In this document: piece after piece, positions 48,815-54,392 of the stretch
Position numbering within the stretch: the stretch's first letter is position 1
How the letters are laid out: the number at the start of each line of letters is the position of its first letter
From: a bacterium
GTDB taxonomy: Bacteria; Babelota; Babeliae; Babelales; JAUWHS01
NCBI GenBank assembly: GCA_030605785.1
Contig: JAUWHS010000065.1
Location: 1 to 56,877 of the forward strand
Direction of reading: 5' to 3'
DNA length: 56,877 nucleotides
Translations under genes and position numbers: made by a program
Notes under the pieces: model-generated
What the model saw: the letters and a program-made list of their open reading frames with translations, nothing else
What the model was told of the DNA's origin: nothing
The model's database searches: none

Positions 48815-49489
48815 ATGCCAACATCAACAGCATTAAGAGTAAAAGAATTATTGCGTGAACGTGGTTGGACAACAAAAGTTTTAGCTGAAAAAACAGGGTT
48901 ATCAGAAAGTTATTTAACTCATATAAAAAATGGAACAAGACGCTGGAACGAAGACGCGTTAAGAAAATTAGCCGATGCTTTTAACGCGCATCCAATTGAT
49001 ATGTTCGCGCATAAAAAAAGTAGAACGGATGATGTTGAAAAATCGGTTGCTGTTTCACAGGATGTTGAAATTGATTTACAACTTAGAATTGTTCCTGTTG
49101 TAGGTGAAATTCCATCAGAACCTTCTCCTTATAATAATCAAATTGCGCAAACTACAACCGGTTACAAAGATATTTTTGTACCTGTTTTTAATAGTTTAGA
49201 TGATTCTTTATTTTGTTATTATGTTGGTAATAATTTAATGGCGCCAAATTTTATTAAGGGTGATTATTTAATTATTTCTCCACAAGAATGGGCAAAGTCC
49301 GGTGATATTGCCGCTGTTGAATATGGTAATGACAATCACATAAGAAATATCATGCAAGTTACATATATGGATGATTTTATTGTTTTAGAATCAGTTAATC
49401 ATAAACAACCGCCGGTTGCTTTGATTAAAGGTAAAGATCATTTTAGGGTGATTGGAAAAATTATTTATAGGTATCAAAGGCTTGGATAA
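48815..49489 (+). CDS. XRE-family HTH regulator with C-terminal S24 (LexA/CI)-like domain, paralog A
   Basis: HTH LAEKTGLSESYLTHIKNGTRRWNEDAL. The C-terminal domain carries GNNLMAPNFIKGDYLIISP...GDIAAVEY...VIGKIIYRYQ, resembling peptidase S24, but with Leu where the SM serine is expected. Confidence 0.75.
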   Translation: MPTSTALRVKELLRERGWTTKVLAEKTGLSESYLTHIKNGTRRWNEDALRKLADAFNAHPIDMFAHKKSRTDDVEKSVAVSQDVEIDLQLRIVPVVGEIPSEPSPYNNQIAQTTTGYKDIFVPVFNSLDDSLFCYYVGNNLMAPNFIKGDYLIISPQEWAKSGDIAAVEYGNDNHIRNIMQVTYMDDFIVLESVNHKQPPVALIKGKDHFRVIGKIIYRYQRLG

Positions 49490-49496
49490 AGAATTA

Positions 49497-49544
49497 AACC
49501 GGTAATGTATCACCGAGTTTGTCGGTGATACATTACCGGTTTTT
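49497..49544. terminator. Strong bidirectional hairpin terminator (20-bp perfect stem)
   Basis: AACCGGTAATGTATCACCGA-GTTTG-TCGGTGATACATTACCGGTT, followed by TTT and preceded by A residues. It lies in the convergent gap between regulator A and the F-box cluster. Confidence 0.7.
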
Positions 49545-49578
49545 CCATAAACAACAAATTGAAATAGCAAAATAGCTT

Positions 49579-49616
49579 TTAAATATCAAAATGGCTATAG
49601 CCATTTTGATATTTAA
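49579..49616. repeat. Perfect 38-nt palindrome immediately 3' of the last F-box gene
   Basis: TTAAATATCAAAATGGCTA|TAGCCATTTTGATATTTAA, read directly. AT-rich and without a clear T-run on the minus strand. Confidence 0.55.
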
Positions 49617-51717: not shown

Positions 51718-51745
51718 AATATTTGTCCCTGTTTTTATAAAGGTT

Positions 51746-53248
51746 TTACAGTATTTGGCAAAACCAATATCTATCTTCATCAATTTGCATTGAATTGTCA
51801 TTTTCCATTATTTCTGTTGTCAGTTCAGATGGATCAACAAGTTCGTAATTTCCAGATATTGTTAAGTTTCGTATATCTTCAAGAGCGTTTTTTTTTGTTA
51901 TTTTTACAGCTTTTCTGTGTCCGTAGATATATCCGTAGAGATAGAGCCTACGAAGGTTTATTAAATTACCAATTGATTCAGGCAAATATTTAAATTGGTT
52001 GGCGCTGAGGTTGAGTTCTATAAGGTTTGTTAAATTACCAATTGATTCAGGCAAATATTTAAGTTGGTTGGCGCAGAGGTTGAGTTCTATAAGGTTTGTT
52101 AAATTACCAATTGATTCAGGCAAGGATGTAAGTCGGTTGCTTTCGAGGCAGAGCCCTACAAGCTTTTTTAGGTTACCAATCGATTCAGGCAAAGATTCAA
52201 GTTGGTTGCTTTCGAGGCGGAGCCCTACAAGCTTTTTTAGGTTACCAATCGATTCAGGCAAAGATTTAAGTTGGTTGCTTATGAGGTAGAGCCGTATAAG
52301 GTTTGTTAAGTCTCCAATCGATTCAGGCAAAGATGTAAGCTGGTTGCTTATGAGGGAGAGCCGTATAAGGTTTGTTAAATTACCAATTGATTTCGGCAAA
52401 GATTTAAGTTGGTTCTCGTTGAGGTTGAGTTTTATAAGGTTTGTTAAGTCTCCAATTGATTCCGGCAAAGATGTAAGTTTGCTGTAGTTGATGTTGAGCT
52501 TTATAAGGTTTGTATTTTCATTTTTAATTAATATTAATGGAAATAATCCCGCTAGCTCAGCATTCGTAAGATTACTCAAATTAATGTTTGGCTTATTATT
52601 GCAGTCTAAATTGTTTAACAATTTATTTCTTATTTTTGCAAACTTATCTTCATTTGACTTCAAAACTTTTAAAGCGTAAGCAAAAAGAGAATCTTGTGAA
52701 AATTGATTCCAATTAAAATCATTCCAATTAATATCTTTATTTTTATTTGTGTAAGCAATTGCAATAAACATGATCTTTGCGTTACGAAGATAGTCTAAAT
52801 TATCTAAATCAGATTGTGTTGCGGTATTTTGCTCTAATTTTTGTTTAATTTGAGTTATTTTATCATTTAGTTTTTGCCAATCATCTTTTAAATATACATT
52901 TTTCCAATTTGCTGCATCGTAAGCATGGCCATTTTGTTGGTTTGGTAAAATATTAGAAAAATCATCCGGTAAATTATCTTCTACTTTGTGTTTCCAAACT
53001 TGCCAATCGCTTGCAAGACAATTCCAATTTTTAGAAACGCATGCTGCCTTTCCCAAATCTGCAGAATCGAGATATTCAAAAATCATTAGAGAAAGTTCAG
53101 AGGGTAATTCTGAAATAAAATCTCTTTTATTGTCTTGCTTTCCAAACCAGCTTGAAAATTGTTGCATTCCAAACAAACTTGGAACGTTTACAGAAAGAAA
53201 AATAGATAAAAATAAAACTTTTAAAATTGTATTTTTTAATTTTTTCAT
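51746..53248 (-). CDS. F-box / leucine-rich-repeat protein ending in CQIL (tandem paralog 3)
   Basis: Signal-like MKKLKNTILKVLFLSIFLSVNVPSLFG. F-box LPSELSLMIFEYLDSADLGKAACVSKNWNCLASDWQVWKHKV. Eight full 23-aa LRRs. The C-terminus is ...DEDRYWFCQIL-stop. Confidence 0.85.
   Translation of the reverse strand: MKKLKNTILKVLFLSIFLSVNVPSLFGMQQFSSWFGKQDNKRDFISELPSELSLMIFEYLDSADLGKAACVSKNWNCLASDWQVWKHKVEDNLPDDFSNILPNQQNGHAYDAANWKNVYLKDDWQKLNDKITQIKQKLEQNTATQSDLDNLDYLRNAKIMFIAIAYTNKNKDINWNDFNWNQFSQDSLFAYALKVLKSNEDKFAKIRNKLLNNLDCNNKPNINLSNLTNAELAGLFPLILIKNENTNLIKLNINYSKLTSLPESIGDLTNLIKLNLNENQLKSLPKSIGNLTNLIRLSLISNQLTSLPESIGDLTNLIRLYLISNQLKSLPESIGNLKKLVGLRLESNQLESLPESIGNLKKLVGLCLESNRLTSLPESIGNLTNLIELNLCANQLKYLPESIGNLTNLIELNLSANQFKYLPESIGNLINLRRLYLYGYIYGHRKAVKITKKNALEDIRNLTISGNYELVDPSELTTEIMENDNSMQIDEDRYWFCQIL
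51959..52510 (-). repeat. Tandem 69-bp coding repeats (eight LRR units) in paralog 3, including two nearly identical adjacent copies
   Basis: Boundaries were mapped codon by codon (NLIKLNINYS... to ...GNLI). The units at about 52140-52275 differ by very few bases. Confidence 0.85.
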
Positions 53249-53693
53249 AATAACACTCCGTTTTTTAAAATAGTTTCTAAAATAACACTTTTGCCTTTAT
53301 CTTACGTATGATTCTACACTATCTGAAATTGATTTCAAACGGTACGAGAGGTTGAAAAAGATTACATTTTTTATTGCTTTTGTACCTAAAATTGATCAAA
53401 TTGTTAATTTTTTAATAAAAACAATGATTTTAATTTACATTAAATTTAAAATTTTGCTTTAAAAACAGGCTTTTTTGGCCAAAGGCGTTTGACGGGAAAA
53501 AGGCTTTTGTTTAACTTTATGTTACAGCTATTGAAAAATGCTGTTTAAATACCGACAATCATTGACAATTGAGAGTTGTTAATGAAAAACATTTCAAATG
53601 GAGATGTGAGATTGTTGCGAGAGTGGAGATTACAGATTTTGCGAGATTTTCGTAAGTTATTTTTTGACATAGTTACAGTATTTGGAGGTTATT

Positions 53694-54392
53694 ATGAAAC
53701 AAACCGCTTTAAGGGTTAGAGAACTTTTACGTGAAAGACGTTGGACAACCAAGGTTTTAGCTGAAAAAACCGGGATGTCAGAAAGTTATTTAACTCATAT
53801 AAAAAATGGAACAAGACGTTGGAACGAAGATGCTTTAGCAAAACTTGCTCTTGCGTTTGAGTTAGAACCAACAGACATTTTTTCTTTCAGTAAAAAACGT
53901 ACAGATGAAGTTTCTCATCAATTACAATTTGTTGGTCAAGATATTAATTCAACAGATGTAAATTTAAATATTCGAGTTGTTCCTGTTGTGGGACAAATTC
54001 CAAGTCAACCATCTGCTTACAACAACCAAGTTTTACAGGCTTCAACCGGTTACAAAGATAAGTTTGTACCTGTGTTTGTTGAGGATGGGGACAAGGATAA
54101 TGAAGCAATGTTCTGTCTTTCTATTAAAGATAATTCATTAGCTCCTAAATTTGTAAGTGGTGATTATTTAATCGTTTGTCCGGGTCTTTGGACCAGGTCA
54201 GGTGATATTGTTGCTGTTGAATACGGTGACGAGCAAAATCCAACAAAAGAAATTGTACAAATTAATTATATGGATGACTTTGTTGTTTTAGAGTCTGTTA
54301 ACCATAAAAAAGCGCCGGTTGCTTTGGTTAGAGGTAAAGACAGCTTTAGAATTATTGGTAAAGTTACTCATAGATATCAAATGATGTCTTAA
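53694..54392 (+). CDS. XRE-family HTH regulator with C-terminal S24 (LexA/CI)-like domain, paralog B
   Basis: The N-terminal HTH region is nearly identical to paralog A (LRVRELLRERRWTTKVLAEKTGMSESYLTHIKNGTRRWNEDAL). C-terminal KDNSLAPKFVSGDYLIV...GDIVAVEY...IIGKVTHRYQ. ATG 53694 lies 5 nt after GGAGG. Confidence 0.75.
   Translation: MKQTALRVRELLRERRWTTKVLAEKTGMSESYLTHIKNGTRRWNEDALAKLALAFELEPTDIFSFSKKRTDEVSHQLQFVGQDINSTDVNLNIRVVPVVGQIPSQPSAYNNQVLQASTGYKDKFVPVFVEDGDKDNEAMFCLSIKDNSLAPKFVSGDYLIVCPGLWTRSGDIVAVEYGDEQNPTKEIVQINYMDDFVVLESVNHKKAPVALVRGKDSFRIIGKVTHRYQMMS

Follow-up and report, generated by a model that had tools for sequence, protein, structure and literature searches.

The locus analyzed here raises the question of whether genes for eukaryote-like F-box proteins that lie between two paralogous regulator genes of a bacterium form, together with these regulators, a dedicated regulated cassette, as was originally predicted. 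The source organism is a Dependentiae (TM6) bacterium, and this phylum consists of obligate parasites of protists. In the window, i.e., the whole stretch of 56.9 kb of DNA that was analyzed, the order is rnhB (minus strand), regA (plus), fb1, fb2 and fb3 (minus), regB (plus) and rpsF, which confirms the gene order and coordinates of the original prediction. The features are the following:

47940-48695, minus strand: rnhB (RNase HII; Pfam RNase_HII 1.9e-29, NCBIfam 3e-53), left flank
48731-48765, plus strand: regA promoter, TTTCTATTTGACA (-35 at 48738-48743), 16-nt spacer, TG-CATTAT (-10)
48815-49489, plus strand: regA, regulator with XRE-HTH and LexA-fold (S24-like) domains (HTH_3 6.4e-9; Peptidase_S24 1.3e-10)
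49496-49542: regA terminator, perfect hairpin with 21-bp arms
49579-49616, minus strand: terminator of the putative fb operon, perfect palindrome with 19-bp arms, then a T-run on the minus strand
49620-50384, minus strand: fb1, signal peptide, degenerate F-box-like segment, all-helical orphan domain
50413-51717, minus strand: fb2, signal peptide, F-box, helical middle domain, about 7 LRRs, C-terminal ...DRYWFCQIL
51746-53248, minus strand: fb3, signal peptide, F-box, middle domain, about 9-10 LRRs, C-terminal ...DRYWFCQIL
53311-53338, minus strand: predicted promoter of fb3-fb2-fb1, TTGAAA, 16 nt, TAGAAT (promoter scan 10/12)
53324-53337: perfect palindrome TGAAATTGATTTCA over the -35 and spacer of the predicted fb promoter
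53489-53517, plus strand: regB promoter, GGCGTTTGACG, 17 nt, TAACTT; leader of about 170 nt
53583-53596: second TGAAA-N4-TTTCA palindrome, TGAAAAACATTTCA, in the regB leader
53694-54392, plus strand: regB, rpsF-adjacent paralogue with XRE-HTH and LexA-fold domains (Peptidase_S24 1.4e-11; HTH_26 2.9e-10)
54449-54484, plus strand: terminator-like hairpin 3' of regB
54578-55132, plus strand: rpsF (S6, 1.7e-14), right flank
55146-55433, plus strand: rpsR, 3' of rpsF; the rpsF-rpsR block (54578-55433) is the conserved right flank

The HMM searches detected F-box and LRR domains in fb2 and fb3 and XRE-HTH and Peptidase_S24 domains in both regulators, as had been anticipated. Fb3 scored 49.9 bits for F-box-like and 40.4 bits for F-box (LRR_8 2.3e-18) and fb2 scored 35.1 and 26.0 bits, respectively (LRR_8 2e-19), the Pfam cut-offs being 24.3 bits for F-box-like and 20.5 bits for F-box. 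Moreover, among PDB entries the F-box segment of fb3 has counterparts in FBXW8, FBXW7, Cdc4 and FBXL2 (E 2e-7 to 8e-5), and its LRR region matches SHOC2-type LRRs. Judged from their sequences, the products of fb2 and fb3 are genuine F-box-LRR proteins of the eukaryotic type. The claim of three F-box genes holds for these two, but not for fb1, whose F-box is degenerate (F-box-like 20.4 bits, below the cut-off) and in which Pfam detected no LRR. A homologue of fb1 was not found among 5.8 billion proteins, and its AlphaFold2 model was unusable (pLDDT 47); the protein has the signal peptide and an LPSEL motif in common with fb2 and fb3. All three N-termini, in which the signal peptides were assigned by eye, follow the pattern MK(K/I)LK..IL..LFLS.FLS.NVPSLFGM. 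The starts given by the ORF program for fb1 (50501) and fb2 (51801) were rejected as too long and replaced by the ATGs of the MKILKQT sequences (50384 and 51717, respectively), each of which lies 28 nt past the stop of the upstream gene; the fb3 ATG is preceded at 7 nt by the ribosome-binding site GGAG. The 172-nt junctions fb3/fb2 and fb2/fb1, comprising the C-terminal tail, the 28-nt spacer and the signal peptide, are 95% identical to each other, while fb2 and fb3 share 57% identity overall. The trio has one promoter-like site 5' of fb3, called purely as a match to the consensus, and one terminator 3' of fb1, which starts 3 nt past the fb1 stop codon; fb3-fb2-fb1 most likely constitute one tandemly duplicated operon.

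RegA and RegB are about 60% identical. The regA promoter scored 10/12 in the scan with an extended -10, and its TTTCTATTTGACA motif occurs once in the window, its words being 15- to 30-fold enriched 5' of regulator genes in other genomes. Translation of regB starts at ATG 53694, preceded by the ribosome-binding site GGAGG. The coordinates of the regB promoter were read by eye, as it was not among the sites listed by the automatic promoter scan; no other non-coding block is as well conserved between the window and two related loci, L087 and L001. The AlphaFold2 model of RegB (pLDDT 81.6) matched LexA, the C-terminal domain of lambda CI and UmuD' in Foldseek (TM 0.6-0.73, target-normalised), and the C-terminal domains of RegA and RegB have the same fold as LexA, CI and UmuD (Pfam S24 1e-10 to 1e-11). 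As in CI, an N-terminal HTH is combined with a C-terminal dimerisation/cleavage domain, the HTH being of XRE type as opposed to the winged helix of LexA. Unlike in LexA, CI and UmuD, however, the catalytic Ser column of the family is variable (S in 88 of 219 sequences, A in 45, L in 21, T in 20 and G in 20, with Leu in RegA), there is no invariant Lys (the candidates being K108/R107 or an invariant Gln) and the cleavage loop VPVVG(E/Q)IP(S/A)(N/Q)PS has no Ala-Gly. Since these S24-like domains have neither a conserved Ser-Lys dyad nor a cleavage site, the pair does not represent cleavable repressors of the SOS or prophage type; the gene has a fixed chromosomal position beside rpsF and no prophage context. 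The family would presumably act as a stable, non-self-cleaving dimeric DNA-binding regulator.

The distribution of this regulator bears directly on the notion of a dedicated repressor pair framing the F-box genes. RegB has 1796 homologues, the best 120 of which are 62-99% identical to it, and 256 relatives in species-representative genomes, the named ones being TM6, Dependentiae or Babeliales, including Vermiphilus. A regulator gene adjoins rnhB in most Dependentiae loci, and most of the 79 genome loci examined show the order rnhB, one or two regulator genes, rpsF-rpsR. In the phylogenetic tree, the rnhB-adjacent copies, those of single-copy genomes included, form one clade in which regA groups, and regA of the window pairs with L001 regA as does regB with L001 regB. 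According to this tree, the duplication of regA and regB is ancient and took place long before the fb insertion. RegA and RegB are best explained as ancient paralogues of a core Dependentiae-wide regulator, whose conserved place is where the ftsY-hyp-rnhB unit meets the rpsF-rpsR unit. The age of the duplication speaks against a dedicated pair, as do the same paralogs at the rnhB/rpsF position without F-box genes among the 79 genome loci. The near-identical HTH segment noticed in both proteins is indeed present; as it is invariant in 21 of 21 aligned family members, it is not informative about this locus.

The F-box genes themselves, by contrast with the phylum-wide conservation of regA and regB between rnhB and rpsF, are lineage-specific, so that of the predicted five-gene island only the trio is peculiar to this lineage. 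In L087 (82-87% nucleotide identity) and L001 the order is rnhB, regA, regB, rpsF with directly adjacent regulators, and L087 has 130 bp in place of window positions 49499-53403. Colinearity with both stops at 49498-49501, i.e., at the regA terminator hairpin; with L087, the blastn match resumes only at 53404, while global alignments suggest that the entire spacer is homologous, and 53249-53403 may thus be either old spacer sequence or part of what came with the F-box genes. A search of 84 loci returned no fb homologue, and none of the 79 genome loci has one. Only two proteins related to the fb middle domain were detected, P0245, encoded at an unrelated locus, and P0241, on a 1.7-kb contig; both show a very similar combination of signal peptide, middle domain and LRR without an F-box.

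The gap between fb3 and regB (53249-53693, 445 bp) is unusually long, as claimed: among the ORF-to-ORF gaps listed for the window the median is 104 bp, and since every one above 445 bp holds a gene or tRNA missed by the ORF filter, no gap without a gene or tRNA is taken to exceed it. Its length nevertheless does not speak for a cassette, given that the regA-regB spacer measures 448 bp in L001 and 470 bp in L087, both devoid of F-box genes, and that its best-conserved block is the regB promoter. Furthermore, comparison of the two regulator intergenic regions of the window, suspected to share operators, revealed no common operator.

We consider it probable that the F-box trio is a strain-specific, tandemly duplicated operon of Sec-exported proteins that was inserted at a permissive boundary and has no dedicated regulatory module. 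A block of about 3.7-3.9 kb (roughly 49.5 to 53.25 or 53.4 kb) would have entered the regA-regB spacer in this lineage alone, at what may be a permissive gene-free boundary between transcription units, and would have brought the fb3-fb2-fb1 operon with its own terminator. Each product would be exported via its Sec-type signal peptide; fb2 and fb3, once exported, would reach the host, a protist, as mimics of SCF substrate receptors, the F-box binding host Skp1 and the LRR picking the targets. What fb1 retains of the F-box is degenerate and is fused to an orphan helical domain. To our knowledge, no route from the periplasm to the host cytosol is known in Dependentiae, and delivery to host Skp1 is therefore an assumption. 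The CQIL C-terminus of fb2 and fb3 may be prenylated by the host and anchor the proteins to membranes, similar to Legionella AnkB; by the X = Leu rule it would predict geranylgeranylation, not farnesylation. CQIL occurs only in these two recent paralogues; P0241 and P0245 do not have it, and by chance a C-x-x-x end occurs in about 1% of ORFs.

Alternatively, RegB and/or RegA could repress the fb operon directly via the TGAAATTGATTTCA palindrome, the inserted genes having been wired into a pre-existing master regulator that is, e.g., linked to the infection cycle. This palindrome overlaps the best promoter of the minus strand at its -35 and spacer, the only two exact TGAAA-N4-TTTCA sites of the same spacing in the window are TGAAATTGATTTCA and TGAAAAACATTTCA, both in the 445-bp gap, and a similar palindrome is found in the regA-regB spacer of L001 (9656-9669). 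However, TGAAATTGATTTCA is degenerate in L087, the closest relative, TGAAAAACATTTCA is not conserved in L001 or L087, and other genomes do not conserve the palindrome near their regulator genes despite the invariant HTH. The element TACACTATCTGAAAT (53314-53328) resembles, at 12/15 positions by eye, the regB-type promoter element TTGACWNNYTGAAA, which elsewhere is highly specific to regulator upstream regions (17/30 matches in 985 kb), but a position-weight scan with the regB-type element gave no strong match at the fb promoter. The 14-mer TATCTGAAATTGAT recurs only 5' of the window's other signal-peptide LRR gene. Genes for Ank or WD40 proteins with signal peptides adjoin the regulators in at least four other lineages, and of 27 eukaryote-like ORFs among 894, 12 are located in the rnhB-rpsF interval; yet in most of the 79 genome loci the regulators have no adjoining eukaryote-like gene, and in L024, L025 and L040 the inserted genes are co-directional between regB and rpsF, whereas here they are divergent. 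On balance, direct repression appears unlikely, albeit not negligible.

We regard it as less likely still, and as quite doubtful, that the fb proteins are Sec-exported envelope or surface LRR proteins, e.g., adhesins, in which the F-box is left over from domain shuffling and has either lost its function or taken on another. The N-terminal Sec-type signal peptides together with no known type III or IV translocation signal would fit such a role, as would P0241 and P0245 with a very similar architecture but no F-box, the decaying F-box of fb1 and the similarity of the LRR region to Leptospira LIC surface LRR proteins as well. On the other hand, the F-boxes of fb2 and fb3 have remained above the Pfam cut-offs, with canonical FBXW7-like motifs, even though the two proteins have diverged to 57% identity, which argues for selection on the F-box, a domain for which we know of no partner in bacteria. 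Moreover, the putative effectors of Dependentiae carry signal peptides as a rule (PMC6561590). Finally, an assembly or binning artefact, with the 3.9-kb block wrongly joined, e.g., via AT-rich or repeated sequence, might be suspected from the metagenomic type of the contig, the absence of the block in two relatives and the hairpins and palindromes at its left edge, but it is highly improbable in view of the perfect synteny on both flanks, a composition like that of the surroundings (LRR arrays excepted), a signal peptide type that is shared with other Dependentiae proteins and a coherent layout of promoter, operon and terminator.

Inserted host-targeting genes, the favored reading, have several counterparts among known systems. 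Like Ralstonia solanacearum GALA and other F-box-LRR effectors, fb2 and fb3 combine an F-box with LRRs, although they differ from these in a helical middle domain with only two detectable relatives; GALA proteins are type III substrates. L. pneumophila AnkB, for which PMC11323580 (citing Price et al. 2010) describes farnesylation by the host and anchoring to the membrane of the vacuole, resembles fb2 and fb3 in having a eukaryote-type F-box, a repeat domain that binds substrates and a C-terminal C-x-x-x (CaaX) motif. It is, however, injected by the Dot/Icm type IV system without a Sec signal peptide, carries Ank repeats instead of LRRs, and its F-box shows faint sequence similarity to that of fb3 (5k35, E 0.81). 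Tandem arrays of paralogues are likewise found in bacteria living inside eukaryotic cells such as the amoeba symbionts Amoebophilus asiaticus and environmental chlamydiae, for which expansions of F-box, LRR and Ank proteins have been reviewed (PMC11323580), and in L086, another metagenomic bacterium. In the phylum of the window itself, Babela massiliensis, TM6SC1 and Chromulinavorax destructans also possess eukaryote-like domain proteins; F-box, LRR, WD40 and Ank domains were reported from TM6 genomes (PMC4776705), and 44% of the Chromulinavorax CDS carry signal peptides, putative effectors included (PMC6561590). The fb trio, its position between the regulators and the CaaX-like end are not mentioned in these two Dependentiae/TM6 papers. 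Taken all together, the locus would be an ordinary case of a known kind of host-manipulation gene.

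Between rnhB and rpsF, the low-GC window (GC ~30%) carries regA and regB, paralogous genes for regulators with an HTH and an S24-like domain, which enclose the F-box or F-box-like genes fb1, fb2 and fb3 in the following order.

47940-48695, minus strand: rnhB
48815-49489, plus strand: regA, HTH and S24-like regulator
49620-50384, minus strand: fb1, F-box-like match below the Pfam cut-off
50413-51717, minus strand: fb2, F-box and LRRs
51746-53248, minus strand: fb3, F-box and LRRs
53694-54392, plus strand: regB, HTH and S24-like regulator
54578-55132, plus strand: rpsF
55146-55433, plus strand: rpsR

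The original prediction of three F-box genes was borne out for fb2 and fb3, in which F-box, F-box-like and several LRR families all exceeded the curated Pfam cut-offs, but not for fb1: with cut-offs of 24.3 bits for F-box-like (PF12937) and 20.5 bits for F-box (PF00646), fb3 scored 49.9 and 40.4 bits and fb2 35.1 and 26.0 bits, respectively, and fb1 reached only 20.4 bits with F-box-like. The eukaryote-like motif LPxE(L/I)xxxI(F/L)xxL ... V(C/S)KxW ... W is present in the fb3 segment RDFISELPSELSLMIFEYLDSADLGKAACVSKNWNCLASDWQVWK, which aligned with FBXW8, FBXW7 and Cdc4 at E values of 2e-7 to 2e-6 and also matched FBXL2; its counterpart in fb1 is LPSELRLKILSYL, followed by an insertion. Moreover, fb2 and fb3 (57% identity) share an architecture of signal peptide, F-box, helical middle domain, 23-residue LRRs (~7 in fb2, 9-10 in fb3) and a conserved tail ending in ...NSMQIDEDRYWFCQIL. 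The tandem LxxLxLxxNxL repeats of both genes have a 69-nt (23-aa) periodicity and were matched by the Pfam profiles LRR_8 (2e-19 in fb2, 2.3e-18 in fb3) and LRR_14 (1e-25 and 5e-30), and SHOC2-type LRRs matched the LRR part of fb3 (SHOC2, E 7e-84). LRRs were absent from fb1 according to the Pfam profiles, its homologue search returned fb1 itself as the sole match, and its single-sequence AlphaFold2 model had a pLDDT of 47.

The search with full-length fb3 was flooded by generic LRR proteins, and the only remote full-length relative was P0186, a protein with Ank, F-box and LRR (36% identity) encoded in a different tandem array. Two proteins related to the middle domain, P0241 and P0245, the latter encoded at an unrelated locus, have LRRs and a signal peptide much like that of the fb proteins, and lack the F-box; no relative was confirmed in the metagenome contigs scanned with the middle-domain alignment. 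Since these relatives combine similar signal peptides and LRRs without the F-box, the domain make-up of the fb proteins points to shuffling inside the lineage rather than to recent import from a eukaryote.

The island proved lineage-specific, since the fb block is missing from the homologous loci of two close relatives, L001 and L087. In L001, whose RegB is 85% identical, colinearity with the window spans 40033-49501 and resumes at regB, regA and regB there being adjacent and 448 bp apart; in L087 (82-87% nucleotide identity) 130 bp stand in place of window 49499-53403 and the regA-regB gap measures 470 bp. An fb homologue was encoded in none of the 84 loci. The conspicuous 445-bp gap between fb3 and the divergent regB (53249-53693) is real: the median of the ORF-to-ORF gaps listed in the window is 104 bp, and every larger listed gap contains a gene or a tRNA that the ORF filter had passed over. 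That the cassette created this gap was rejected, as L001 and L087 have gaps of comparable length without the cassette. This similarity, together with the conserved regB promoter block, argues that the long regA-regB gap is probably ancestral, and global alignments suggest that the whole 445 bp may be homologous to the ancestral spacer, but blastn against L087 resumes only at 53404, and the first 155 bp may instead have come with the cassette. The conserved blocks of the spacer are the regB promoter (GGCGTTTGAC-17-TAAnTT, 53489-53517, with a leader of ~170 nt) and a further block at about 53311-53340. Neither integrase nor transposase domains were detected in the five interval proteins (Pfam), the interval holds no tRNA, no convincing flanking repeat was found (the sole pair, at 53233 and 53401, is 23 nt long and 87% AT-rich), and no shift in composition was seen, the GC content being 0.29-0.33 apart from the LRR arrays. 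A second strain-specific insertion (window 55486-56823) lies just downstream of rpsR and carries an AAA_14/DUF4143 ATPase gene (55651-56826); at this site L087 has only ~166 bp and L001 a Na+/H+ antiporter gene.

Within the block, the two 172-nt gene junctions (tail, 28-nt spacer and signal peptide) are 95% identical, which shows the fb genes to be, at the sequence level, tandemly duplicated or gene-converted; the mechanically called fb ORFs overlap because their extended "starts" read the tail of the upstream gene in another frame. The minus strand has a single good promoter-like site ahead of fb3 (53338 to 53311, TTGAAA-16-TAGAAT), and 3 nt past fb1 there is a perfect palindrome with 19-bp arms and a T-run behind it, from which we infer that fb3-fb2-fb1 would be transcribed as one operon. 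All three proteins open with the same Sec-type signal peptide, called by eye, MK(K/I)LK.TI.K.LFLS.FLS.NVPSLFG|M. In this they differ from T3/T4-delivered F-box effectors of the AnkB, LegU1, GALA and VirF type; to our knowledge, no injection systems are known in Dependentiae.

Furthermore, fb2 and fb3 end in CQIL, which counts as one evolutionary event and not two; fb1 ends otherwise, and the motif is missing from P0241 and P0245. A Cys at position -4 occurs in 9/894 ORFs (~1%) of the data set. CQIL fits a CaaX box in which X is Leu, and by our reading of the prenylation rule such a box would lead to geranylgeranylation of fb2 and fb3, which we regard as a lead and not as a finding. Legionella AnkB is described as an F-box effector with host lipidation (PMC11323580); its C-terminal CaaX is used by host prenyltransferases, and the CaaX-like end of fb2 and fb3 may be compared with this motif. 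In another Dependentiae genome, a signal-peptide helical-repeat protein (L050:1264-2289) ends in SCCVLL, a textbook CaaX with an upstream Cys, a hint that secreted Dependentiae proteins may carry motifs for host prenylation more than once.

The regulators have a different history. HTH_3/HTH_26 and Peptidase_S24 were found in both RegA and RegB with Pfam, in agreement with their initial assignment. The protein collection contains 1796 homologues of RegB, of which the best 120 are 62-99% identical to it, and the 256 relatives in species-representative genomes belong, where named, to TM6, Dependentiae or Babeliales, with Vermiphilus pyriformis among them. RegA and RegB do share a near-identical HTH, but this is a property of the family and no sign of recent duplication, as the segment WTTKVLAEKTG.SESYLTHIKNGTRRWNED is invariant in the alignment of 21 diverse members. 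The order ftsY-hyp-rnhB (minus strand), regulator (plus strand), rpsF-rpsR (plus strand) recurs among the 79 genome loci, with the position kept in most of them, either with one regulator (e.g., L066-L084) or with two in tandem (L001, L010, L012, L018, L027, L028, L035, L037, L042, L043 and L064); in the complete genome CP064957 the regulators lie apart, one beside rnhB and the other beside rpsF. In a neighbour-joining tree the rnhB-adjacent copies, those of single-copy genomes included, form one clade, and regA and regB of the window each pair with their L001 counterpart. Given the recurrent loci and this pairing, the regA/regB duplication is ancient and has no connection with the F-box genes. 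A prophage setting of the CI-repressor type was not supported: the position between rnhB and rpsF-rpsR is conserved in most of the 79 loci, and no phage genes were seen among the annotated neighbourhoods read. As far as the literature searched shows, neither the family nor its fixed rpsF-adjacent position has been described. In the same neighbourhood, window 47363-47965 encodes a 200-aa protein with a weak HAS-barrel match (23.9 bits, below cut-off) and a 26-nt overlap with rnhB; in most of the Dependentiae loci its orthologues accompany ftsY and rnhB.

Peptidase_S24, the C-terminal domain with the S24 beta-fold, scored above the Pfam cut-off in both regulators, and Foldseek matched the AlphaFold2 model of RegB (pLDDT 81.6) to LexA, the lambda CI C-terminal domain and UmuD'; a sequence-profile search of the PDB with the family returned XRE HTH domains only. 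At the position matching the catalytic Ser of LexA, an alignment of 219 sequences has S 88, A 45, L 21, T 20 and G 20, with Leu in RegA and Ser148 kept in RegB. For the Lys, either K/R 108/107 or an invariant Gln comes into question, the exact equivalent being uncertain owing to the weak profile alignment to LexA; hhalign paired the family with E. coli LexA at a probability of just 1%, and the Ser/Lys mapping rests for this reason on column conservation and not on a confident alignment. A conserved Ser-Lys dyad is absent across the 219 sequences, and the linker lacks an Ala-Gly/Cys-Gly site, the aligned loop VPVVG(E/Q)IP(S/A)(N/Q)PS having no Gly at P1'. Thus, the family shares the fold of the self-cleaving S24 repressors LexA, CI and UmuD but misses two of their defining features, and we infer that RegA and RegB are stable dimeric regulators whose C-terminal domain serves oligomerisation or sensing. 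In L087, the closest relative, a premature TGA in regA (L087:5154-5762) removes ~22 C-terminal residues and leaves 202 aa, which may be an error of this assembly (4.4x coverage) or mark a pseudogene.

The trio and its flanking regulators had been read as a regulated cassette under a dedicated repressor pair, which was not supported, the regulators being old and present in loci without fb genes. Among 95 regulator upstream regions no common palindromic operator was found, only A/T runs and one clade-specific TGAAA-N11-TTTCA; the elements conserved there are promoters. Genes of the regA type carry TTTCTATTTGACA, whose copy at 48731-48743, at the regA promoter, is unique in the window. The composite TTGAC-N3/4-YTGWAW (consensus TTGACTATCTGAAAG) has 30 sites in 985 kb of loci, of which 17 precede a regulator gene, mostly of the rpsF-adjacent type, by 90-200 bp; it was found in 16 loci (e.g., L002:9880, L015:5856, L027:3351 and L031:773). 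It is a candidate autoregulatory site, almost specific to rpsF-adjacent regulator promoters; its spacer element is missing from the window's own regB promoter.

Direct control of the fb genes by RegA/RegB is unlikely, and what speaks for it are three features of the fb3/regB spacer. Exact TGAAA-N4-TTTCA sites occur twice in the window, as TGAAATTGATTTCA (53324-53337), which overlaps the predicted fb promoter, and as TGAAAAACATTTCA (53583-53596) inside the regB leader; one is also found in the same spacer of L001, and the L087 version is degenerate. With one mismatch allowed there was no window-wide enrichment (16 found vs 15.8 expected), and likewise none of TATCTGAAAT. The regB-type element resembles 53314-53328 at 12/15 positions by eye, and a position-weight scan for it gave no match at the fb or LRR promoters. 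The window has just two copies of the 14-mer TATCTGAAATTGAT, one at 53320-53333 in the spacer and one at 6309-6322, where it precedes the window's one other signal-peptide LRR gene (6349-7215) by 27-40 nt; two matches were reached in 2/100 shuffles, and it may be a cis-element common to this gene and the fb block. None of the palindrome, the 53314-53328 likeness and TATCTGAAATTGAT is conserved across the phylum. The minus-strand promoter-like element at 53311-53340 (TTGAAA-16-TAGAAT) is also seen by eye in the fb-less L001:9640-9672, where it aims at the regA terminator and would yield only a short antisense or small RNA. The regB leader of ~170 nt (53522-53700) carries a repeated TTGCGAGA element and folds more stably than shuffled sequences (z = -3.3, 0/200); it showed no conservation in L087 or L001 and no Rfam match, and Rfam gave nothing credible over 49.4-54.65 kb, with sub-threshold matches on terminator hairpins only.

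In other Dependentiae lineages the same interval holds other signal-peptide eukaryote-like genes, as follows.

L024:6776-7549, L025:6762-9244 and L040:6716-9356: 1-3 tandem Ank genes between regB and rpsF, F-box-like LPDELIVKIL start
L051:7093-8160: Ank gene in the rnhB-reg-rpsF interval
L052:7499-9412: WD40 gene in the rnhB-reg-rpsF interval, Vermiphilus
L067:4099-5853: Ank gene between rnhB and regA

Eukaryote-like ORFs make up 27 of the 894, and 12 of the 27 lie inside this interval, which may be an insertion hotspot; by a rough count there were ~5 independent events, ~3x the per-gene-junction rate of the flanks, which is suggestive and not significant. Orientation and position vary among lineages, which speaks for a permissive boundary and against a fixed module. 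RegA/RegB could be an undescribed Dependentiae-wide master regulator (an XRE-HTH with a catalytically dead LexA fold, anchored by rpsF) whose flanks form a recurrent landing pad capturing secreted eukaryote-like genes, F-box-LRR here and Ank or WD40 elsewhere, under RegA/RegB control, e.g., timing effectors in the infection cycle, with the products here Sec-exported and then host-lipidated via CaaX; we consider this combined scenario quite improbable.

Among bacteria living inside eukaryotic cells, F-box-LRR mimics belong to the standard repertoire. F-box, LRR, WD40 and Ank proteins have already been reported in TM6 genomes (PMC4776705), and putative effectors with signal peptides are typical of Dependentiae (PMC6561590), so that the trio adds little beyond one more example. 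Overall, the effector-like genes and the lineage-specific island stand, but the dedicated repressor pair and the regulated cassette do not, and the regulator family with its fixed site is a by-product and not the finding as originally stated. The comparison of the window with L087 and L001 gives a clean before/after view of how genes of this kind were acquired and multiplied in tandem at one particular site. Moreover, a very conserved and apparently Dependentiae-only regulator family has come to light, with a LexA fold, no conserved dyad or cleavage site and a fixed place between rnhB and rpsF. Finally, signal-peptide effectors of Dependentiae may bear host prenylation motifs, which, if confirmed, would bear on how effectors are delivered and localised in organisms without known injection systems.
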